From IMG/VR virus record IMGVR_UViG_3300045988_109965, positions 1 through 43,163 of that record: a stretch of DNA of 43,163 bases. One strand, written 5' to 3'. The position numbers and the translations under genes are program-made. Positions 2,081 through 42,944 of this stretch are shown one piece after another (positions within the stretch are counted from its first letter, which is position 1; each line of letters starts with the position of its first letter). Below the pieces are notes generated by a model. That model was not told where the DNA came from and made no database searches. It saw only the letters and a list, made by a program, of their open reading frames with translations. This DNA is from a virus.

Positions 2081-4131
2081 AAAAGAGAGACAAAGACCGG
2101 CTGCGGCTGTGGCAGGACAGGCTCGGGCGGGCCAACGCGGCATATGAGCCGGAGCTGTCCAAAATGGACGGGCGGGAGGAGCTGTACCAGGGCTGCAGCC
2201 GCATCCGGCCCATCGTTTGTACCGCCCGGAAGAAGGAGACCCCCCACGTGCGCAACCTGTGCGCCGAGATGATCGAGAGCCAGGTGGACAGCAACATCCC
2301 CCAGCCCAAGGTCACGCCCCGGCGCAGAGAGGACGAGTGGCGGGCCAAGCTCATCGAGGACATGCTCCGCAACGAGTTGGACCGGCTGCCCTTTGAGCAG
2401 ATGAACGACATCATGGAGCGCACCATCCCCATCCAGGGCGGCGGGGCCTTTTTGGTGGAGTGGGATAACAGCAAGGCGGGAAGCGCCACCGTGGGAGAGC
2501 TGGCCGTCTCCACCCTCCACCCAAAGCAGATCATCCCCCAGGCCGGGGTTTACACCGGCGTAGAGGATATGGACTACATCATTCTCAAAATTCCGCAGAC
2601 CAAGGGGTACATCAAGCGCACCTACGGCGTGGACGTGTCTGAGGAGGCAGAGGAGGAGCCGGACGTCAAGGGCGGCAGCGGCGAGGGCACGGCGGACGAC
2701 ATGGTGACCCAGTATGTGGCCTACTACCGCAACCCGGACGGGGGGATTGGCCTGTTTTCCTGGGTGAACGACACGGCGCTGGAGGACTTGGAGGACTATC
2801 AGGCCCGGCGGCTGCGCCGGTGCGCCCGGTGCGGCGCGGTGGAACCCCTGGAGGCTGAGCCGGTGGATGCCCCGGCGGACAAGGGGCTGCTGCCCGGCAT
2901 GACCCCCGACGGGGCGGGCGCGGGGCCGGACGGCACGCCCACCGGGCGGCGGGGCAAGCGGAAGGTCTGCCCCTACTGCGGCGGCGACAAGTGGGAGGAG
3001 GCCAAGGAGGAGTACGAGGAGGTCTATGTCCCCATACCCCGCAGCGACGGCACCGAGATTCCGGGGGCGCGGCCGGTGGAGGTTGTCACCGATACAGTGG
3101 ACGAGCTGGGCTTGCCCGTGGTGGCGGTGGTGCAGGAGCCGACCCGGATTCCCTTCTACAAGCCGGACATCTACCCGGTTATCCTCCAAAAAAATGTGAG
3201 CGTGTACGGCAGGTTCCTGGGGGACAGCGATCTGGACAAGATTGCCGACCAGCAGAACACCACCAACCGCATCGAGGCCAAGATTATAGACAAGCTCACT
3301 AAATCGGGCAGTTACATCAGCCTCCCCAACGACGCCAAGATCCGCTACGACGAGGAGGACATGAAGAAGATCTATCTCTCCAGCCCGGCGGACAAGTCCT
3401 ATCTGGACGTGTACGACCTCCAGGGGGATATTGAGCAGGACATGGCCTATCTGGCGCAGGTATACGAGGAGGCGCGGCAGGTCATCGGAATCACCGATTC
3501 CTTCCAGGGCCGCAAGGATTCCACCGCCACCAGCGGGACGGCCAAGGAGTTCTCCGCTGCCCAGGCCGCCGGACGGCTGGAGTCAAAACGGGTCATGAAG
3601 AATGCGGCCTACGCGGCGCTCTTTGAGGCCATGTTCAAGTTTAAGCTGGCCTACGCCGACGAGCCGCGGCCTGTGGTCTCCCACGACATCGAAGGCCGGG
3701 CCGAGTACCGGCAGTTCAACCGCTACGACTTCCTGGAGCAGGACGAGACGGGGGAGTGGCGGTGGATTGACGATTTCCTCTTTTCCTGCGACACATCCGC
3801 CCCCCTTGCCAACAACCGGGAGGCCATGTGGCAGGAGACGCGGATGAACCTCCAGACCGGGGCGTTCGGCGACCCGACCAACCTCAAGACCCTGATCCTT
3901 TTTTGGACGAAGATGGAGCTGCTGCACTATCCGGGCGCGGGCGACACCAAGACCTATCTGGAGCAGGAGTATCAACAGCAGCAGGCCATGATGCAGCAGC
4001 AGATGGCAATGCAGCAACAGCAAATGCAGATGCAGGCGGTACAGGAGACGGTCTCCCGAGCCAAGCAGGATGCGGCCGAGGCCGCGCAGGACGGGGGGAT
4101 CCCGGCAGCAAGGGCCACCTATATGGCATAA
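2077..4131 (+). CDS. Portal protein with an internal CxxC...CxxC insert and a Q/M-rich C-terminus
   Basis: Its ATG overlaps the terL stop (ATGA at 2077-2080). Called from size and position directly after terL. An alternative in-frame ATG lies at 2059. Confidence 0.75.
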   Translation: MKKRDKDRLRLWQDRLGRANAAYEPELSKMDGREELYQGCSRIRPIVCTARKKETPHVRNLCAEMIESQVDSNIPQPKVTPRRREDEWRAKLIEDMLRNELDRLPFEQMNDIMERTIPIQGGGAFLVEWDNSKAGSATVGELAVSTLHPKQIIPQAGVYTGVEDMDYIILKIPQTKGYIKRTYGVDVSEEAEEEPDVKGGSGEGTADDMVTQYVAYYRNPDGGIGLFSWVNDTALEDLEDYQARRLRRCARCGAVEPLEAEPVDAPADKGLLPGMTPDGAGAGPDGTPTGRRGKRKVCPYCGGDKWEEAKEEYEEVYVPIPRSDGTEIPGARPVEVVTDTVDELGLPVVAVVQEPTRIPFYKPDIYPVILQKNVSVYGRFLGDSDLDKIADQQNTTNRIEAKIIDKLTKSGSYISLPNDAKIRYDEEDMKKIYLSSPADKSYLDVYDLQGDIEQDMAYLAQVYEEARQVIGITDSFQGRKDSTATSGTAKEFSAAQAAGRLESKRVMKNAAYAALFEAMFKFKLAYADEPRPVVSHDIEGRAEYRQFNRYDFLEQDETGEWRWIDDFLFSCDTSAPLANNREAMWQETRMNLQTGAFGDPTNLKTLILFWTKMELLHYPGAGDTKTYLEQEYQQQQAMMQQQMAMQQQQMQMQAVQETVSRAKQDAAEAAQDGGIPAARATYMA

Positions 4132-4342: not shown

Positions 4343-5275
4343 ATGGAAATCAACTACGGCGCGGTGTTTGATGTAGAGGTGCCGGAGACTACCACAGGCG
4401 CAGAAGAGACGGAGGCCGCCGAACCGTCGGAAAATGACACCACTACAGCCGCCGCACAAGGCGCAGAAGAGCAGGAGGCCGCCGCCCCTGCCGTAGAGGA
4501 AACGGAAGAGTCCGAACAGCCTCAGACGGAGGCGCCGGAGCAGGAACCCAAAACCGACCGCGACGCACAGTTTGCCGCAGCCCGCCGCAAGGCGGAGGCG
4601 GAGCGGGACGCCGCCATTGCCCAGGCCAAAGAGGACGCGCAGAAGCAGGTGGATGAGTTTTTCAAGAACTCGGGGCTGATGAACCCGTACACCGGGCAGC
4701 CCATCACCACCAGAGCGGAGTATGAGGCATACCGGGAGCGATTCGAGGCCGACCAGAAGGCCAAGCTCATGGAGAAGGCGGGCATTACCCAGGAGGAGTT
4801 CCAGGCGTTTGTCCAGGGCCTCCCGGAGGTGCGGGCGGCCCGGCAGGCCAAAGCCGAGGCGGAGGCCGCCGCAAGGCAGGCCAGAGAGCAGGAGGCAAAG
4901 GCAAGGGTGGACGAGCAGCTCCGGCAGATTCAGGCCATCGACCCCACGGTCAAGGAGCTGGGTGATCTGGCGAAGCTGGACACTTATCCCAAGCTGTACG
5001 ACATGGTCAAGCGGGGCTACTCCATCCTGGACGCCTACCGTCTGGCGAACTATGACACGCTGACCCAGCGGGCCGCGGAGGCCAGCCGGAAGGCGGCCAT
5101 CAACTCCGTGCAGAGTAAGCAGCACCTGAAAGCCACCGAGAGCCGCGGCGGCGGGGCGATCCCCGTGCCCGACAGCGTCCTTGAGGAGTACCGGGCCCTG
5201 AACCCCGGCGCGACCAAAGAGGAGATCCAGAAGCACTATCAAAGCTACATGAAGAACAGCCGAAAGGAGCAATAA
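4343..5275 (+). CDS. Head scaffolding protein
   Basis: Acidic N-terminus and long charged coiled-coil stretches (AKAEAEAAARQAREQEAKARVDEQL). Lies between portal and capsid genes. Confidence 0.7.
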   Translation: MEINYGAVFDVEVPETTTGAEETEAAEPSENDTTTAAAQGAEEQEAAAPAVEETEESEQPQTEAPEQEPKTDRDAQFAAARRKAEAERDAAIAQAKEDAQKQVDEFFKNSGLMNPYTGQPITTRAEYEAYRERFEADQKAKLMEKAGITQEEFQAFVQGLPEVRAARQAKAEAEAAARQAREQEAKARVDEQLRQIQAIDPTVKELGDLAKLDTYPKLYDMVKRGYSILDAYRLANYDTLTQRAAEASRKAAINSVQSKQHLKATESRGGGAIPVPDSVLEEYRALNPGATKEEIQKHYQSYMKNSRKEQ

Positions 5276-25966: not shown

Positions 25967-27040
25967 TTATTCTTCATTAGCATTTTTGTTAGCATTTTCT
26001 TCGCTGCGATAGAATGCACTCAGGGCCGTCTCATAGCGAGCTATGTCCGACTTGGCAATGTGGGTATAGATTTTATGCATGGTTGTGGCGTCAGCCCAAC
26101 CTCCGATTTCCATTGCGATTTTATCCGGAATCTGGAGGTGGTAGGCCAGGGAGGCGAAGCTGTGCCGGAGGCCATGGACTCCGACATTCGGAAGCCCATT
26201 CGCGCTGCAAATCTTTTTGATGGCGCACCGAAGGCTGTTTTGATGTATCTCCAGCACCGGGCCGGATGGTTTCCGGTCACGCTCCAGCGCCGTTGCCAGT
26301 TCTGGAATCATGATGGGGACCTTGCGGGTTGAGGTAACATTTTTGTTCTGGCGCTTTTCAATATACTTGTTGTCCTCGTTCAAGACTACCGCGCCGGATA
26401 CGCGGATGAATTTCGGATTCTGCGGTATGTTCTGCCACTTTAAGGCTTGAATTTCTGATACACGGAGAGAGCATAAAGCCAACAGGCAGGGAACCGCATA
26501 TTTCGTATCCTTGACAGCGGAGACAAATTTTTTTATTTCATCAGGTGAAAGAAATGGCTTTTCGGCTGGGATCTGAACCGGAAGGGTAATCGCCGGCAGC
26601 TTTTTCCCGGTGGCGTCCTCTACGACGCTTCGAATAAATCCCCAGGCGTTTTTCAGTGTTTTAGGAGAGCATAGGGCGGCCTCCTGATTTACAATGACCT
26701 GCCACTCGGACTCCGGTATTTCGTCCAGCCTGCGGGACAGTGTGCTCCTGAACCGGTGCTTTTGAATGGTTCGGTATCCCCGCACAGTCAGAGGGGACAG
26801 GGTATTGTCCCGAGCCGATATGTAGCGGTCTATGGCCTCGTTCAATGTCGGGGAGTCTGTTTCCTCCGGGTTCTTCGGGGCTCTCTTACCAACCAGATAC
26901 TCTGCTTTTACCGCTTGAGCCTGCCGGGTACACTCCTTTTCTGTGCTGGCCGTTACCGGAATACTCTCTCCGCCGAGGCGGAGCTGTATAAACCATTTCC
27001 CGGACGAGAGTTTCCTGGCCTTTGGAACTTTCATTGACAA
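25967..27040 (-). CDS. int: Tyrosine integrase
   Basis: 357 aa. LRVSEIQALKW (Arg I), HGLRHSFASLAY (HxxR) and GGWADATTMHKIYTH (catalytic Tyr region). Lies next to the tRNA-fragment att site. Confidence 0.9.
   Translation of the reverse strand: MSMKVPKARKLSSGKWFIQLRLGGESIPVTASTEKECTRQAQAVKAEYLVGKRAPKNPEETDSPTLNEAIDRYISARDNTLSPLTVRGYRTIQKHRFRSTLSRRLDEIPESEWQVIVNQEAALCSPKTLKNAWGFIRSVVEDATGKKLPAITLPVQIPAEKPFLSPDEIKKFVSAVKDTKYAVPCLLALCSLRVSEIQALKWQNIPQNPKFIRVSGAVVLNEDNKYIEKRQNKNVTSTRKVPIMIPELATALERDRKPSGPVLEIHQNSLRCAIKKICSANGLPNVGVHGLRHSFASLAYHLQIPDKIAMEIGGWADATTMHKIYTHIAKSDIARYETALSAFYRSEENANKNANEE
25977..26001. repeat. 25-bp direct repeat, copy 2 (inside the integrase 3-prime end)
   Basis: Identical to 25747-25771. 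Encodes the ...ENANKNANEE C-terminus of the integrase. Confidence 0.8.
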
Positions 27041-33811: not shown

Positions 33812-34435
33812 ATGGAATACATTAAAATCCCTATAATCTGCGCCGACGCCATTTTGGCCCTCGGAGAAGCGGAGTGTGGCCGGTTGCTTATGTCCCTTCT
33901 GGAATACAGTAGGGGCGGAGGTACGGTTGAACCCCGTGGTGCTGAGAAGTCAATCTATCTAATTTTGAAAGCGCAGATGGACAAGGATACAGAGACAGGG
34001 CGGAAACGTGCGGAGAACGGGCGGAAAGGCGGCATAGCAAAGTCTAGCAAATTAAAGCAAAATCTAGCAAGAGATAGCATGCCCCCTTCCCCGCTTCCTT
34101 CTCCCCCCACACCCCCCATATCTATTCCCCCATCCCCCAAAGAAAAACCCCCTAAAGGGGGTAAAAAGAAAGTCCCCCCAACGGTGGAAGAAGTCCGCGC
34201 CTATTGCCAGGAACGGGGGAACGGCATAGACCCGGAGGCCTTTGTGGACTTCTACGCAGCGCGGGGGTGGAAATACGGAGCAGGGCGGCCCATTGTAGAC
34301 TGGAAAGCCGCCGTGCGAACCTGGGAAGCCCGCCGAAGGGCGGAGCAGCCAGCCACTACGGAGACATACCGCCCCAGGGCCTATCACCTGGAGCGGGACG
34401 AGGATGGACAGGAGGTTGTAGTCTATGACGATTGA
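33812..34435 (+). CDS. Replisome organiser / DnaD-like replication initiation protein
   Basis: Pro-rich linker, then EEVRAYCQERGNGIDPEAFVDFYAARGWKYG...DWKAAVRTWE, a conserved phage C-terminus. Overlaps the DnaB gene. Confidence 0.7.
   Translation: MEYIKIPIICADAILALGEAECGRLLMSLLEYSRGGGTVEPRGAEKSIYLILKAQMDKDTETGRKRAENGRKGGIAKSSKLKQNLARDSMPPSPLPSPPTPPISIPPSPKEKPPKGGKKKVPPTVEEVRAYCQERGNGIDPEAFVDFYAARGWKYGAGRPIVDWKAAVRTWEARRRAEQPATTETYRPRAYHLERDEDGQEVVVYDD
34035..34081 (+). repeat. Five TAGCAAR iterons with exact 10-bp phasing (candidate origin inside the organiser gene)
   Basis: tagcaaa, tagcaaa, aagcaaa, tagcaag and tagcatg start at 34035, 34045, 34055, 34065 and 34075. Confidence 0.6.
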
Positions 34436-35702
34436 CGCACTGGAGGCGGAGAGCGCGGTATGCGGCTCTATCCTGCTGGACGATGCATGTCTACCAGAAG
34501 TGCTGGAGCACCTGACAGAGGCGGATTTCGTGCTGGAGGCGAACCGGTCGATTTTCCGGGCGGCGGTTGAGCTTTACCGGCGTGAGGAGCCGGTAGACCC
34601 TGTGAGCATCCGGGCGGAGGCCAGGGGTGCAGTCAGCGACGCCTACATGATGGAGCTGATGCAGGCCACCAACACGGCGGCCAACGCCGGGATTTACGCG
34701 GAAGAGACCCGGCGGGCGTCCATGCGGCGGAGCCTGGTAGCCCTCGGCCAGGAGCTGGAGCAGCGTGCGTCTACCCTGGAGGACACCCCCAGGGAGCTGA
34801 TTTCCGCCGCACAGCGAGAGCTGGAGGCCATTGAGGCTCAGGACACCGCAAGGGAGCTGGCTACCTCCGGGGATACTTTGCTGGCCTATTACCGGCACCG
34901 GGAGCGGGTGGATGCCGGTGCCGGCGGCTACGTCCCTACGGGCTACCGGAGCTTAGACCGATTGCTGGGCGGCGGCCTGCTGAACAGCGGATTTTACATT
35001 CTGGCCGCCCGGCCCGGCATGGGCAAGACCACTTTTGGGCTGGCTGTGGCGGATCAGGTAGCCCAACAGAATGGGCCAGTGCTCTTCGTGTCCCTGGAAA
35101 TGGATGAGGAGCAGTTGGCCGCCAAGCGGCTGGCGCGGGCCGCCGGGATTTCCTATGACGCCCTCATGATGGGCAATCTTGGGGACGAAGAGCGGGCCCG
35201 TGCGGCGGAGTGGAGTTCGAAGGTGTCCCAGATACCTGTCTACACAAACCGCAAGCCCCGCGCCACCGTGGACGATATCGCCAACATGGCCCGGAAGGTT
35301 AAAGGGCTCAAGCTGCTGGTGGTGGACTATTTCGGGCTGATCCGGACAGAGGAGCGGGCTAAAAACCGCTATGAGGCTATGACCGAGGTGTCCGGGCAGC
35401 TCAAGGCGCTGGCGAGAAAGCTCAAAGTACCGCTGCTCTGCCTGGCGCAGATCAACCGGGAGAACGCACAGCGGCAGGATAAGCGGCCCCAGCTCTCTGA
35501 CCTGCGGGATACCGGGGCACTGGAGCAGGATGCGGATGGCGTAATCTTTTTACACTGCAACAGCTATTACAACCAGGAGCGGCCCGACCCGTGGGAGCCC
35601 GACTATATGCAAATTATTTTGGCGAAAAACCGGCACGCCAGCACCGGTACGTGCGACGCGGCATTCTACCGGGCGGTGGGGCGGATTATACCAGCGAGGT
35701 GA
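34425..35702 (+). CDS. dnaB: Replicative DNA helicase (DnaB family)
   Basis: ARPGMGKTTF (Walker A), LLVVDYFGLI (Walker B), LSDLRDTGALEQDADGVIFLH, and a DnaB-type N-terminal domain. Confidence 0.9.
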   Translation: MTIDALEAESAVCGSILLDDACLPEVLEHLTEADFVLEANRSIFRAAVELYRREEPVDPVSIRAEARGAVSDAYMMELMQATNTAANAGIYAEETRRASMRRSLVALGQELEQRASTLEDTPRELISAAQRELEAIEAQDTARELATSGDTLLAYYRHRERVDAGAGGYVPTGYRSLDRLLGGGLLNSGFYILAARPGMGKTTFGLAVADQVAQQNGPVLFVSLEMDEEQLAAKRLARAAGISYDALMMGNLGDEERARAAEWSSKVSQIPVYTNRKPRATVDDIANMARKVKGLKLLVVDYFGLIRTEERAKNRYEAMTEVSGQLKALARKLKVPLLCLAQINRENAQRQDKRPQLSDLRDTGALEQDADGVIFLHCNSYYNQERPDPWEPDYMQIILAKNRHASTGTCDAAFYRAVGRIIPAR

Positions 35703-39205: not shown

Positions 39206-39702
39206 CCAGAGAAATACTTTTCAAGGCCCAACGGCTGGATAACGACGAGTGGGTGGAGGGAAACATTGTGGATGTCCCGGAAGATGCCGACTTTATGCCC
39301 GGAGCGTACATTCTACCGCGGTTGGTATCGGCCAGGGCAGACCCGCCCACAAAAGGGAGAATCATGCTAGGCGGATTCTTTGAAGTTGACCCCGCCACGG
39401 TCTGCCAGTACACCAACATCGACATACAGCGAGAAGCGTGGCCGTCCTCCGAAGTACACAAGATTTTTACTGGCGATATGCTGGGCGAATGGGGCGAGGA
39501 CGAGGAAGGCAACGAGTGTGTTTGCATCCTCGGCGTCGTGACCTATTGGGAAGATGAAGGACGCTATGTATTGGCAGACGAGGACGGGTTGTGCAACGAC
39601 TGGACGCTGGAGGACGAAGCGAAGCCAGAGAATTGGCCCAACCTCATACACTGCGGCTCCATCCACGACGGGGAGGGCGGGCAACATGAGCGAGTGGATT
39701 AG
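39202..39702 (+). CDS. YopX-like protein
   Basis: N-terminal ILFKAQRLDNDEWVEGNIV pattern. 166 aa. Confidence 0.55.
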   Translation: MTREILFKAQRLDNDEWVEGNIVDVPEDADFMPGAYILPRLVSARADPPTKGRIMLGGFFEVDPATVCQYTNIDIQREAWPSSEVHKIFTGDMLGEWGEDEEGNECVCILGVVTYWEDEGRYVLADEDGLCNDWTLEDEAKPENWPNLIHCGSIHDGEGGQHERVD

Positions 39703-39895
39703 CGTCAAGGACAGGCTGCCGGAAAGTCAAGCGGATGTCCTTGTGGTGGCGTTTTGGCATGAACGCTGGCAGACCATGATGGGCTGGCATAGTGACATGG
39801 GAAAGAAGTGGCGTGTCATTACACCACACGGAGAAAGAGAGCCGGGCGGTGTCACCCACTGGATGCCCCTCCCAGACCCGCCGAAGGAGGGATAG
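39686..39895 (+). CDS. DUF551-like protein
   Basis: WISVKDRLPE...VLVV...VTHWMPLPDPP. Confidence 0.6.
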   Translation: MSEWISVKDRLPESQADVLVVAFWHERWQTMMGWHSDMGKKWRVITPHGEREPGGVTHWMPLPDPPKEG

Positions 39896-39898
39896 CCC

Positions 39899-40114
39899 TT
39901 GAACGAGTTCCCGGAGAGGCTGCGACGGTTAAGAGAAGAGAAAAGACCAGTCAAAAGCATGGTGACGGTTTCGGAGTTATGCGGGCTACCGAGTGGTGCG
40001 GTAAGAAAGTATGAGCGTGGGGAGGCGCGTCCTAATATGACAGCCTTGATTGCATTGGCCGACTACTATGAGGTAAGTTTGGACTACTTAACAGGGCGAA
40101 CAAATTTCAGGTAA
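39899..40114 (+). CDS. Small XRE-family HTH protein
   Basis: RLRRLREEKRPVKSMVTVSELCGLPSGAVRKYERGEARPNMTALIALADYYEVSLDYLTG. Confidence 0.7.
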   Translation: MNEFPERLRRLREEKRPVKSMVTVSELCGLPSGAVRKYERGEARPNMTALIALADYYEVSLDYLTGRTNFR

Positions 40115-40169
40115 AATTTTTTAAATTGTCCTTTTTTGGACAGCAAAGAAAGAATCTTACTTTAAAATG

Positions 40170-41230
40170 GGAGTGTGGGAGCGTATACCCCTGCGCTCCC
40201 ATTCTCTTTCATTCCCCTTCCTCCTTCACACGGATGGGGTGGCGTCGGTGCATCTGCCGCCACCCCCTCTGTGTGCAATATGCCGCCGGTCGAACACCAC
40301 CCCACTATTCGGGGCATGAGGGGTCGCACCCTTCGGGCGGCGAATGACGGTGGAAAGACACTACACCAGACTGCCGGAGCGTCTAGGCGCTGGGAAGAGT
40401 AAGACGCGAGCCGCCTGTCATGGAGGCGGAAGCGGTGGCAGCTATGACCTGCCCCGGTGTGCCGACACATAGAAAGCGGCTGCGCCCGGCGGAGCGTGTA
40501 GAGACGGAATCCGCCTATATTGGGTCGCTCCCATCCGTGGAAGCCGGACGCTTGTGTAGGGCGATAGCTACCAGCGCTATCCCGCTGAAAACTGCCGTGT
40601 TTGCCTGTGCACGGGCATCCAAATACGGTGTGACAATTAAACGAGAAGCGCACATATGCCGAGTGCAGTAGCAGAAGCGGAAGCGGCGGCCCGTTACGTC
40701 GCGGACGTGTGGCGGCTCAATGCCGCCTCTCGGCTCCAAACGCAGAGGGAAAGCAAAAGAGGCACTGCGCGATTAAATTAAATGCCAATGGGCGGCTGGA
40801 CAACCTACTGTCCGCCATATGCCGCTCCTCGCCGCTTGAGGCGGGCGGTGGCACCAGATGTATGGCACCACAGGCTAAAAGCAGACGGGCCTTCCTTGTG
40901 CGCTGTGCGAAAGCGGCAAGGTGAAAAAATTATTTTTGGCTGACCCCGGCCCTATAAAGATGAACGGTTCCGACTGACGACACCAGCGGAGGGGTTGAGA
41001 TGTACCGTGATTATCAAGGCTGTTCCTATGGATGGAGTATGTGAGGTGAGGATGGAAAGGTGTGGAAACGTAGACCGACCAGCGGTGTCTAAGCGTCAGT
41101 AGCAGAAACGGAAATAGGTTGCTGATTGTAATACAGCCTTGATGATTGTGATGTGATACCGCACAGCGGATTACATACAGGCCCGCGGCAAGCCTGACCA
41201 ACCCCGCAACATACCCCGCAAGGGGTATCT
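40170..41230 (+). ncRNA. Candidate large structured non-coding RNA(s); class unknown
   Basis: About 1.1 kb with no SD-led or protein-like ORF. Contains many GC-rich stems, including 40236-40266 (9 bp) and a GCAA-tetraloop hairpin at 41211-41228. Also has an 11-nt long-range complement and internal repeats. GNRA loops read on the + strand. Confidence 0.4.
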
Positions 41231-41262
41231 ATGCCCCCAAAAGCGCGCGAGCTGGAGAGGGC

Positions 41263-41288
41263 AAAAAAGCCGCCCCCGGAGGGGCGGC
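41263..41288 (-). terminator. Terminator of the reverse-oriented cassette
   Basis: On the minus strand, gccgcccc / tccg / ggggcggc gives an 8-bp stem followed by TTTTTT. Confidence 0.75.
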
Positions 41289-41292
41289 AGGA

Positions 41293-41772
41293 TTAGCTCA
41301 GAATTTCTTTCAGTTTGTCCAAATTCCAGGCATTGGGGCTGACCTTGCCGCTCTCCCAGCGGGATATCACGGCCTGGTTAACGTCCATCGCATCCGCAAG
41401 CTGGGCTTGAGTCAAGCCTTTGGCCTTTCTGGCGGCGGCAATATCAAACTCGACAGACGCAAGGGGGCGCTTGCCTTTACCGGCAAAATAGCCTAACTGC
41501 CAAGCCCCCTGCATTTCAAGGGGCTGGAACTTTTCAGACCCTCCCTCCACGGGCGGGTCAATGCTGGTGATCTCGCAAAGCGCCTCAGCAACCTGCCGGT
41601 CGAGATCCCTCTTTAGGAGGCCAAGCCTGTGAGCATCAGAAATGACTCTGGCGAGTGCTGTATACGGGCGCTGAGCGGCAAGGGTGAGATCCCCTCCGAT
41701 CTCCTGCGGATATGCCGCCGCGTTGAGCCGACCGAACACCCAGCCAAACACGTATGCTTCTCTGTTTGTCAT
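41293..41772 (-). CDS. Two-domain regulator: unknown N-terminal domain plus a C-terminal XRE HTH
   Basis: AAARKAKGLTQAQLADAMDVNQAVISRWESGKVSPN. Its ATG overlaps the upstream stop (TGATG). Confidence 0.7.
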   Translation of the reverse strand: MTNREAYVFGWVFGRLNAAAYPQEIGGDLTLAAQRPYTALARVISDAHRLGLLKRDLDRQVAEALCEITSIDPPVEGGSEKFQPLEMQGAWQLGYFAGKGKRPLASVEFDIAAARKAKGLTQAQLADAMDVNQAVISRWESGKVSPNAWNLDKLKEILS

Positions 41773-41957
41773 CAGCAACCGACCTCCTTGAAATAACGGT
41801 ATTCCATTTCGTCATAAACATTGACCTTGATCTTAACCTTGCTGTCAGGATACTGGGAGGCATAACGAGCGGCACAATCCTCGGCTCCCTTCTTGTCGTC
41901 CATATAAGCACCCATCATCCAGCCGTCTTTGCAAACGCAATATTCATAGTGTTTCAT
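41772..41957 (-). CDS. Small hypothetical protein (61 aa), first gene of the reverse cassette
   Basis: ATG lies 7 nt after AGGAGG. A consensus promoter sits upstream. Confidence 0.6.
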   Translation of the reverse strand: MKHYEYCVCKDGWMMGAYMDDKKGAEDCAARYASQYPDSKVKIKVNVYDEMEYRYFKEVGC

Positions 41958-41999
41958 GACTTTACCTCCTATATTGTTCCTTTTACTTTTTATGACTTA

Positions 42000-42027
42000 A
42001 TTATATCATAAAATATGATATTGTCAA
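42000..42027 (-). promoter_or_regulatory. Consensus sigma-70-type promoter for the reverse cassette
   Basis: The minus strand reads TTGACA, 16 nt, TATAAT. Confidence 0.75.
42003..42021. promoter_or_regulatory. Perfect 8-3-8 palindrome ATATCATA-AAA-TATGATAT (candidate operator)
   Basis: Occupies the spacer of the promoter above and lies between the divergent cassette and the antirepressor gene. Confidence 0.6.
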
Positions 42028-42236
42028 TACATATTTTGAAAAATATTTGCCGCCCCGCAGTTGCAGGAGACGGGGGTGGCCCCAACGAGAGGAAACGCAT
42101 GGCGGGATATTCCCCCGCCGCCTCTCAAACAAAAGATCAGGGCTAGGCCGACGGGCCGAAAAGGGAGGTGCCACCTTACTCCCCTGCCCTGAGTCAACAT
42201 AAAGGTGGGAAGCAAAACAGAAAGGGTGGTATCTAC

Positions 42237-42944
42237 ATGAACGAACTAATCAAAGTTGACTTTAGCGGCGAAAAGCCAGCAGTATCAGCGCGGGAACTCC
42301 ACGAGTTTCTAGAGGTAGAAACACCGTACCACAAGTGGTTTCCCCGTATGTGCGAATATGGATTCGCTGAAAATGAGGATTACGCAGTCACGGACATTTT
42401 TGTCCATAACCCCGCTGGCGGCCCTCAGAGCATGAAAGATGCCGCCGTCTCTATCGATATGGCCAAGGAGATCTGCATGCTACAGCGGAACGAGAAGGGG
42501 AAGATTGCCCGGAAGTATTTCCTCCAATTGGAAAAGGATTGGAATAGCCCGGAAAAGGTAATGGCCCGTGCGCTCCAGATAGCAGATCGAAAGATTAAGA
42601 TGCTGGAGGCGGAGAAGGAGACCAACCGGCCGAAGGTGCTATTTGCGGACTCCGTGGCTGCCTCCAATACATCCATACTGGTTGGAGAGCTGGCAAAGCT
42701 CCTCAAGCAGAATGGGGTGGACACTGGGCAGAACCGTCTCTTTGACTGGATGCGGAACAACGGATATCTGATCCGCAGAGAGGGCACGGATTACAACATG
42801 CCCACACAGCGCTCGATGGAATTGGGCCTGTTTGAAATCAAGGAAACCAGCATTACACATGCAGATGGGCACGTTACAGTAAACAAGACTCCGAAGGTGA
42901 CGGGGAAAGGACAGCAGTTTTTTATCAACATGTTTCTTGGTTGA
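42237..42944 (+). CDS. ant: Phage antirepressor (AntA-like N-terminal domain plus KilAC/ANT C-terminal domain)
   Basis: SARELHEFLEVETPYHKWFPRMCEYGFAENEDY and LVGELAKLLKQNGVDTGQNRLFDWMRNNGYL...PTQRSMELGLFE. Confidence 0.85.
   Translation: MNELIKVDFSGEKPAVSARELHEFLEVETPYHKWFPRMCEYGFAENEDYAVTDIFVHNPAGGPQSMKDAAVSIDMAKEICMLQRNEKGKIARKYFLQLEKDWNSPEKVMARALQIADRKIKMLEAEKETNRPKVLFADSVAASNTSILVGELAKLLKQNGVDTGQNRLFDWMRNNGYLIRREGTDYNMPTQRSMELGLFEIKETSITHADGHVTVNKTPKVTGKGQQFFINMFLG

Follow-up and report, generated by a model that had tools for sequence, protein, structure and literature searches.

What does a temperate phage encode in more than a kilobase of hairpin-rich sequence that carries no conserved protein-coding frame? 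This question is raised by positions 40115-41265 of the IMG/VR record IMGVR_UViG_3300045988_109965, a block of about 1.15 kilobases (kb) within a stretch of 43,163 nucleotides (nt) that we refer to throughout as the window, and which represents a temperate siphophage genome of ~43 kb. A preliminary description of the block had proposed a large structured RNA, either a member of the ROOL/GOLLD kind or a new large phage RNA. Our analysis instead revealed a modular tRNA-array locus that is colinear with arrays of real tRNA genes in related phages and prophages, and in which at least three cassettes (here called UA, UC and UM) are, judging from their sequence and predicted folds, derived from tRNAs. 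The reading that we prefer, with a probability of roughly 0.6, is that the block is a polycistronic array of tRNA-derived, non-decoding small RNAs that would be excised by tRNA-processing enzymes.

The block as a modular tRNA-array locus

Related loci were gathered by way of the neighboring XRE protein (56 from IMG/VR and 16 from genomes), by blastn (3 phage records) and through a cassette pattern (116 further IMG/VR loci), and array order was compared across 171 phage or prophage loci. The relatives are Flavonifractor plautii phages together with Intestinimonas and Muriventricola prophages, all of them Oscillospiraceae. Many of these relatives have canonical tRNA genes within the homologous block; ARAGORN places all of them on the + strand and identifies Thr-UGU, Ile-GAU, Met-CAU, Gln-UUG, Arg-CCG, Pro-UGG, Thr-CGU and Gly-UCC. 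The shared order is colinear across the 171 loci: the left half runs from hairpins H2 and H3 through a position held by UA, tRNA-Ile, tRNA-Arg or tRNA-Gln to modules UB, M3, M45 and M5b and a slot for tRNA-Thr, and the right half continues with UC, M7, UM, M9, M10 and M11a before ending in either M11b or tRNA-Met. Of the non-tRNA modules, the window has the most complete set, and it lacks any canonical tRNA. Because real tRNA genes occupy colinear homologous blocks, the block is therefore this phage's tRNA-array slot.

The junctions between modules carry the same signature as those of real tRNA genes. Of the four copies of the motif ATATGCC in the 43 kb window, three fall within the block (40278, 40654 and 40817), each opening a module; in relatives, the junction ..GTGTGCAATAT followed by GCC.. 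leads into unmistakable tRNA 5' halves, and an ATATGCC-type junction also precedes their tRNA-Ile and tRNA-Thr. The AUAU leader of UA, UC and UM is that of real tRNAs, with the succession of a spacer hairpin and then AUAU found in front of these three cassettes and also in front of spacer M45. The cassettes share the same-strand position of array members, and they occur in more arrays than any real tRNA. Predicted folding favors the + strand over the - strand, in the block as a whole and in the cassettes alike. The helices are rich in G.U pairs, which would be A.C mismatches if read on the other strand.

Some of the ostensibly canonical tRNAs in these arrays are themselves odd, such as a 76-79-nt tRNA-Arg(CCG) with an unusual D region (e.g., positions 4525-4603 of related locus L051), and three ARAGORN calls in related loci have 2-nt "anticodons" (tRNA-???). 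These odd members suggest a continuum from tRNA to tRNA-like cassette. An origin as an attP site or tRNA fragment was considered and set aside, with the integrase gene (25967-27040) lying ~13 kb off and the cassettes holding 5' acceptor strands.

By blastn, homology to the block is modular rather than that of one unit, being broken at ~40284, 40341/45, 40457, 40515/20, 40571, 40599, 40627 and 40651/54, with further breakpoints at 40738-46, 40816/17, 40856-58, 41012, 41145/46, 41171-78, 41207 and 41235-38. Among relatives, the stretch between the XRE stop codon and the next anchor measures 393 to 1944 nt, and the multiple alignment of the block is a colinear presence/absence mosaic whose modules of 25-150 nt are gained and lost independently, a pattern that by itself rules out one large RNA of fixed long-range architecture. 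Known RNA families gave no match either. Rfam 15 covers ROOL, GOLLD, raiA, HEARO, OLE and group I/II introns; its cmscan of the whole window at the gathering score returned only an int-alpA RNA at 42136-42205, and over 39900-41500 at E<=10 it gave only chance-level matches to unrelated families. ARAGORN at default settings reported 0 tRNAs across the window, and no transfer-messenger RNA (tmRNA), Y RNA-like (YrlA) element or Rfam viral tRNA-like structure was detected by the ARAGORN tmRNA search and Rfam. Of the earlier structured-RNA claim, the non-coding character and the conserved RNA structure thus held up; the single large RNA, whether of the ROOL/GOLLD kind or new, gave way to independent modules.

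The local features listed in the preliminary description were all found where it had placed them. Its stem of 9 base pairs (bp) sits inside 40227-40244/40258-40275, whose 18-nt arms are 89% complementary, and its stem at 40177-40200 is part of a longer one (40171-40183/40194-40206) that folds as hairpin H2; GGCGGA...TCCGCC spans 40489-40516, the nested hairpin 40894-40921, and ATACCCC-GCAA-GGGGTAT 41211-41228. The long-range complement extends to 14 nt at 93% (41010-41023 with 41133-41146), CAGTAGCAGAARCGGAA recurs at 40666 and 41097, and GCGGAAGCGG occurs at 40426 and 40677 with a third copy at 40907. The proposed crossing helix (40970-40983 with 41083-41098) did not survive comparison: it joins M9 to the optional M10, and it is not conserved because at least 9 related arrays carry M9 but lack M10. 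Using dinucleotide shuffles as the baseline for fold z-scores (n=40 for the whole block), the minimum free energy (MFE) of the block is -464.7 kcal/mol vs. -428.2 +/- 11.3 (z -3.2). The excess is local, with H2, H3, UA, UC, UM, M10 and M11 beating their shuffles and no stability gain over shuffles in M2, M3, M45, M5b, M7 or M9.

The tRNA-like cassettes

UM (40821-40856, + strand) is a 36-nt minihelix with an AUAU leader from 40817, discriminator A and a CCA at 40854-40856, laid out as GCCGCUC / CUCGCC-GCUUGA-GGCGGG / CGGUGGC / A / CCA. Its acceptor-like helix GCCGCUC/CGGUGGC forms 6/7 pairs, two of them G.U, and is stacked on the hairpin CUCGCC-GCUUGA-GGCGGG, the arrangement of an acceptor-T-arm minihelix (helix plus hairpin, then N73-CCA). 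The predicted fold reaches -22.8 kcal/mol, with z -3.07 on the + strand vs. +0.14 on the - strand, and the MFE fold has a frequency of 0.87 in the ensemble. An exact-pattern scan found UM in at least 118 IMG/VR stretches; among 149 fetched loci, the leader reads ATAT in 108 and ATAC in 38, and only 59 of these 149 UM-bearing loci have a canonical tRNA within 1.5 kb.

Per-position conservation of UM is at least 0.9 from position -4 through the CCA and drops to 0.3-0.6 immediately outside, so that the ends of the cassette coincide with a tRNA-type leader and 3' end. No UM or UC variant departs from the CCA (60 distinct windows for UM), and the UM 3' strand CGGUGGC is that of the phage tRNA-Thr(UGU). 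Changes within the helix include G4.U to A4-U69 and U6.G to U6-A67, both giving stronger pairs (3 loci). UM varies little, and its support therefore comes from architecture and thermodynamics rather than covariation. Joining M7 and UM into a 73-nt tRNA-like unit (acceptor GCCAAUG/CGGUGGC) was tried and rejected, as the fold favors the minihelix and UM often occurs without M7.

UC (40658-40738, + strand, AUAU leader from 40654) is an 81-nt tRNA-like RNA that ends in discriminator U and a CCA at 40736-40738. It combines an acceptor GCCGAG/CUCGGC (6 pairs), a 3-bp D-like hairpin, a long variable central arm and a T arm GGCGG-CUCAAUG-CCGCC. ARAGORN calls it tRNA-Asn(GUU) only when the threshold is set at 80%, and the call has C33 and a broken D arm; the Rfam tRNA model did not report UC when it was searched alone (96 nt); ARAGORN calls at a threshold of <=60% or with introns allowed formed an implausible scatter and were not used. 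Across 34 variants, the acceptor and T stems are nearly invariant (1-2 single changes), and the central arm shows 3 compensatory pairs with loops of 7, 10 and 12 nt. The fold scores z -2.0 on the + strand vs. -0.9 on the - strand. UC is not a conserved decoder.

UA (40282-40341, + strand; element 40278-40344) is a 60-nt mini-cloverleaf with an AUAU leader at 40278-40281, a GAA tail and no CCA. Its helices are an acceptor-like GCCGCC/GGCGGC (6 pairs), a D-like stem of 2-3 bp, CCCC-7 nt-GGGG and a 7-bp T-like GAGGGGU-CGC-ACCCUUC with a 3-nt loop (z -2.2 vs. shuffles for 40282-40343). The same four-helix topology was recovered in 31 of 33 distinct variants folded alone, and a covariance model (R1) found 62 copies in 100 loci at 55-81 bits, with one truncated match at 29 bits. 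In the UA alignment, 86.5% of cells are paired, and the covariation score of 0.116 exceeds that of shuffles (0.076; 0/500) and of slid controls (<=0.065); the D-like and anticodon-like stems, at 62% and 69% paired, are underestimates because the model-based realignment left register shifts.

Sequence changes are spread over all four UA helices: the acceptor shows C6-G to A6-U, the D-like stem GG/CC to GA/UC, the anticodon-like stem both C-G to G-C and C-G to G.U, and the T-like stem GC/AU swaps in both directions at two neighboring pairs. The 7-nt loop varies freely (ACUAUUC, AAGAAUC, GAUAAACU, etc.). In three related loci (L020, L022 and L048), the UA slot is taken by tRNA-Ile(GAU) behind the same leader TGCAATAT, and the real tRNA-Ile of these arrays, like UA, has no CCA.

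UB (40373-40458, + strand; 80 loci, 34 variants; z -1.2) is a module of three hairpins. Arm 1, GCGUCU..AGACGC (40379-40407), has an apex that is swapped among variants for unrelated, still-pairing sequence; arm 2, CCGCCU-GUCAUGG-AGGCGG (40411-40429), and arm 3, GGCAG-CUAUGAC-CUGCC (40437-40453), are both invariant with 7-nt loops. A putative closing stem GCCGG/CCGGU differs in register between variants. We rejected UB as a full cloverleaf on account of this shifting stem and its z of -1.2, and call it a three-hairpin module instead. By sequence comparison, the predicted helices of UA, the UC central arm, UB arm 1 and M9 are kept through sequence change.

An acceptor stem (7 bp in a canonical tRNA), discriminator, CCA and leader are present in UC (6 pairs plus U-CCA) and UM (6/7 pairs plus A-CCA). 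Other hallmarks of a tRNA are missing from the window cassettes, none of which is detected as a canonical tRNA by ARAGORN at default or by the Rfam tRNA model. No 7-nt anticodon loop with U33, purine 37 and a conserved anticodon was found in them, the UC loop CCGUUAC having C33, and neither the D arm nor the T loop (UUCRANY) needed for the elbow is found in UC, UA or UM. The T-region loops are CUCAAUG, CUCAUUA or CUCACUG in UC, 3 nt in the T-like stem of UA, and GCUUGA in UM.

Leading hairpins, spacer modules and genomic setting

The block opens with hairpin H1, UGUCC-UUUUUU-GGACA (40127-40142, + strand), shortly after the XRE stop codon; in relatives, a CCUCC.../...GGAGG-type variant keeps a hairpin at this site. 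A little upstream of H1, a promoter-like TTAACA-18-TAAAAT spans 40088-40117. H2 (40169-40208, + strand; -25.2 kcal/mol, z -5.95) is a strong hairpin that heads the array in most relatives; it appears terminator-like in a consensus scan, with a pyrimidine/U-rich tail UCUCUUUCAU as a weak U tract. H3 (40227-40275, + strand; -36 kcal/mol, z -5.36) has 18-nt arms, is full-length in 87 loci and stands immediately in front of the first cassette, with ..GUGUGCAAUAU followed by the initial G.

Three + strand spacers of local hairpins separate UB from UC: M3, which starts after 40458, runs up to 40520 and ends in ..CCGCCUAUAU; M45 (40521-40600); and M5b (40601-40657), which ends in ..GCGCACAUAU. Their hairpins are gained and lost among relatives, with breakpoints at 40457, 40515/20, 40571/74, 40596-99, 40627 and 40651/54, and their sequence diversity among relatives is low. 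M7 (40739-40816, + strand), a spacer with the hairpin GGC.UGGAC..GUCC.GCC, is nearly invariant in 56 loci (z -0.9) and directly precedes the AUAU leader of UM.

M9 (40858-41007, + strand) consists of three hairpins (40894-40921, 40938-40951 and 40968-40990) around an A/T-rich stretch. It is 76% identical in the distant fecal phage MT835520 (L003, ~3000-3125), flanked there by tRNA-Thr(CGU) and tRNA-Gly. Two of the hairpins keep pairing through four double changes; the stability of the module is not above that of shuffles. The 7-nt loop of the first hairpin, GUGCGAA in the window and GUACGAA in the fecal phage, is one that we take to resemble the anticodon loop of tRNA-Arg(ACG). M10 (41008-41150, + strand; z -3.0) is a purine-rich module of 143 nt closed by the 14-nt inverted repeat 41010-41023/41133-41146, and it holds a 17-nt copy of the UC 5' part at 41097-41113. 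It is full-length and nearly invariant in 17 loci, whereas at least 9 arrays with M9 lack it; its appearance is that of a recent insertion or a mobile or long hairpin. The array ends with M11a and M11b (41151-41262, + strand), four hairpins (z -2.1 and -3.0 within 41146-41265), located at 41151-41176, 41178-41200 (CAGGC..GCCUG, then ACCA), 41211-41228 (AUACCCC-GCAA-GGGGUAU) and 41233-41262. In relatives, tRNA-Met(CAU) comes after the GCAA hairpin, in the upstream context ..GTATATCT.

The block is located where early genes give way to late ones, with the packaging genes downstream of it. On its left lie a DUF551 gene (39686-39895) and then a small XRE/helix-turn-helix (HTH) gene of 71 amino acids (aa; 39899-40114). 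On its right, the border is the intrinsic terminator (41269-41288, - strand; 8 G-C pairs, then UUUUUU) of a convergent HTH gene (41293-41778, - strand), assigned to HTH_3. Beyond it lie the Ant antirepressor gene (42234-42944) and, directly upstream of that gene, the int-alpA RNA (Rfam RF02996, + strand, 51.8 bits vs. a gathering score of 35.8); at 41982-42027, both strands carry sigma-70-like promoters that are perfect or nearly so. In relatives, + strand Ant or HNH-terS genes come directly after the block. The small and large terminase subunits (121-591 and 581-2080) stand at the start of the window, and the replication module includes a DnaB-like helicase (34425-35702). Between 24000 and 30000, the window contains a low-GC island (42-48% vs. 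about 60% elsewhere) that carries an acetyltransferase, the integrase (- strand), an ImmA-like protease and an XRE repressor; this island is a lysogeny module of different compositional origin.

Two deposited Flavonifractor phage genomes have hypothetical genes in the homologous stretch: in Castelnaud (ON453903, L001 2926-3426) it is annotated as three small "hypothetical protein" coding sequences, and in Chenonceau (ON453904, L002 3007-3490) as two, all by PHANOTATE. These are probably false genes. In practical terms, the array structure flags such calls in deposited genomes, and it indicates that tRNA finders overlook most of the content of these arrays.

Competing explanations and known systems

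According to the array reading that we prefer, the block would form a rightward (+) non-coding unit between the last early gene, the small XRE regulator, and the late/antirepressor genes, with every array position in the window filled by non-decoding tRNA-derived RNAs and spacer hairpins in between. Transcription that reads through H2, or that starts at the promoter-like site (40088-40117), would yield a single array precursor; RNase P would cut between AUAU and the following G (a U at position -1 is the usual bacterial RNase P preference), and 3' tRNA-processing enzymes would trim to the discriminator or CCA, releasing stable RNAs of ~36, 60 and 81 nt. More speculatively, these products may serve as tRNA mimics, i.e., competitive substrates or decoys for host readers of the acceptor stem and CCA rather than participants in translation, with toxSAS, nucleotidyltransferase or acetyltransferase toxins and other tRNA-targeting defences as candidate targets. 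The broader proposition that gut Oscillospiraceae phages encode non-decoding tRNA mimics as sponges or decoys for such host factors, with the 36-nt minihelix UM as the clearest case and the 60-nt mini-cloverleaf UA beside it, is one that we hold to be unlikely.

Several observations weigh against the array reading. A terminator-like hairpin, H2, lies upstream of the array, and the consensus scan found no + strand promoter-like site inside the block. The UA pairs with double changes (3) are not above shuffles, and its covariation may rest on few events; UM has no true compensatory pair, with G4 to U breaking a pair (U4.U69 mismatch) in 32 loci; and the commonest UC variant carries A1.C72. An L-shaped fold of the cassettes is doubtful because the T-loop and D-loop consensus elements are missing, and the decoy role is speculative. 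Recombination is also heavy in these phages, and module identity is no proof of selection. For instance, the DUF551 gene is 100% identical in 9 loci where the adjacent XRE gene is only ~71% identical, a contrast that shows fine-scale mosaic exchange between neighboring genes. Purifying selection hence cannot be deduced from modules being highly identical, and block-vs.-XRE conservation was rejected as a sign of selection on the same grounds.

The main rival to an array of functional small RNAs is neutral debris, in which decaying tRNA pseudogenes and recombination scars without function are shuffled at a recombination hot spot, an explanation that we consider possible though clearly less probable. 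Such decay would fit a window without any canonical tRNA, anticodon-like loops that vary in length and sequence, the loss of the D and T loop consensus elements, and mismatches at 4:69 of UM and 1:72 of UC in common variants; spacers such as M7 are, moreover, conserved as well as the cassettes, and mosaicism accounts for high identity without selection. Debris sits poorly, however, with double changes that preserve helices in UA, UC, UB arm 1 and M9 while loops are free to vary, with one topology in 31/33 UA variants, with an invariant CCA and leader and sharp edges of conservation, and with cassettes that are present in more arrays than any real tRNA. We find it improbable that the block, or at least H1-H3 within it, is a cis-regulatory leader, i.e., a terminator/antiterminator or processing region governing how far early-operon transcripts extend into the genes beyond (Ant, HNH/terminase in relatives), with incidental tRNA-like parts. 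The terminator-like H2 and the very stable H3 do head most arrays, and in relatives the block is directly followed by + strand Ant or HNH-terS genes, but in the window a convergent gene with its terminator faces the end of the block, the length of the block is anywhere between 393 and 1944 nt, and the acceptor stems, CCA ends and interleaved tRNA genes would be left unexplained.

Two further explanations appear very hard to sustain. One large ornate RNA of the ROOL/GOLLD kind or of a new class, spanning 40115-41265, would be in keeping with a hairpin density that exceeds shuffles and with a Firmicutes phage and tRNA-array context, a setting generally typical of such RNAs; Rfam has no match even at E<=10, however, independent modules leave no common long-range architecture, and the sole long-range helix closes one insertion-like module, M10. 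Scarcely more credible are small protein genes with unusual starts. Open reading frames (ORFs) of 41-163 aa are present on both strands, and GenBank relatives carry small hypothetical coding sequences here, but the ATG-led ORFs have no Shine-Dalgarno sequence, the three longest ORFs of the block have no match in PHROGs or Pfam, and every ORF is hit among relatives by 1-nt or 8-nt indels and by module breakpoints or absence, in agreement with the earlier view that the block has no protein-like ORF.

The long-lived members of the array are tRNA-like RNAs that are unable to decode, rather than tRNAs. The cassettes retain the acceptor helix, CCA and leader, which are the parts read by RNase P, the CCA enzyme and acceptor-stem toxins. 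If expressed and processed, they would constitute natural minihelices, which have so far been mainly laboratory substrates, and would offer a model, open to testing, of how gut phages might use RNA decoys against tRNA-targeting immunity; were the mimic or decoy idea to prove true, it would represent an RNA-based anti-defence strategy distinct from the supply of replacement tRNAs.

Among known systems, ROOL and GOLLD are typically found near tRNA genes in Firmicutes phages. The block resembles these classes (RF03087, RF01998) in being non-coding and phage-borne, and differs in having no covariance-model match and in not being one conserved unit. T4 RNAC and RNAD are likewise non-tRNA small RNAs inside a phage tRNA cluster; the window cassettes are shorter, two of them have an encoded CCA, and a blastn search of 50,697 phage records gave no sign of homology to RNAC/RNAD, returning only Flavonifractor-type phages and one fecal phage. 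Non-decoding tRNA-like RNAs are also known elsewhere, such as tRNA-Other of B. cereus, the TMERs of herpesvirus MHV68 and mascRNA. These, too, are tRNA-like folds, put to use in maturation by tRNA enzymes or in roles outside translation, but their sequences and hosts are unrelated, and none is a modular array of several reduced types.

Acceptor-T-arm minihelices are established laboratory substrates of RNase P, the CCA-adding enzyme and some synthetases. With its 7-position acceptor-like helix stacked on a hairpin, its discriminator and its CCA, UM is of this build, although it is genome-encoded and widespread, with a 6-bp hairpin, a 6-nt loop and no T-loop consensus. The toxSAS FaRel2, whose determinants are pairs 1-72, 2-71, 4-69 and 5-68, acts efficiently on a synthetic acceptor minihelix that ends in CCA (PMC11559606). 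The 4:69 (G.U) and 5:68 (C-G) pairs of UM do not match these determinants, and the FaRel2 case may be taken only as an existence proof for mimicry. A survey of IMG/VR predicted tRNA-like structured RNA candidates, some overlapping ARAGORN calls (PMC10690425); the data source and kind of call are the same as here, with the difference that no array context was given. Literature searches for phage minihelices or tRNA-like cassettes, including encoded minihelix-CCA, found no prior description.

Most directly, the block resembles the tRNA arrays of T4/T5-type phages, with tandem same-strand small RNA genes at a module boundary and, in relatives, real tRNA-Thr, Ile, Met, Gln, Arg and Pro in the same slot. 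Such arrays are now viewed as counter-defence loci besides aids to codon usage, and phage tRNAs are reported to counter tRNA-targeting defences (PMC11555353, PMC13096335). Where the window departs from them is in its units, none of which is canonical, and in persistent members that are miniaturized or truncated tRNA-like RNAs. The block is a known kind of locus, a phage tRNA array, and what is new are the reduced, non-decoding tRNA-like cassettes within it.

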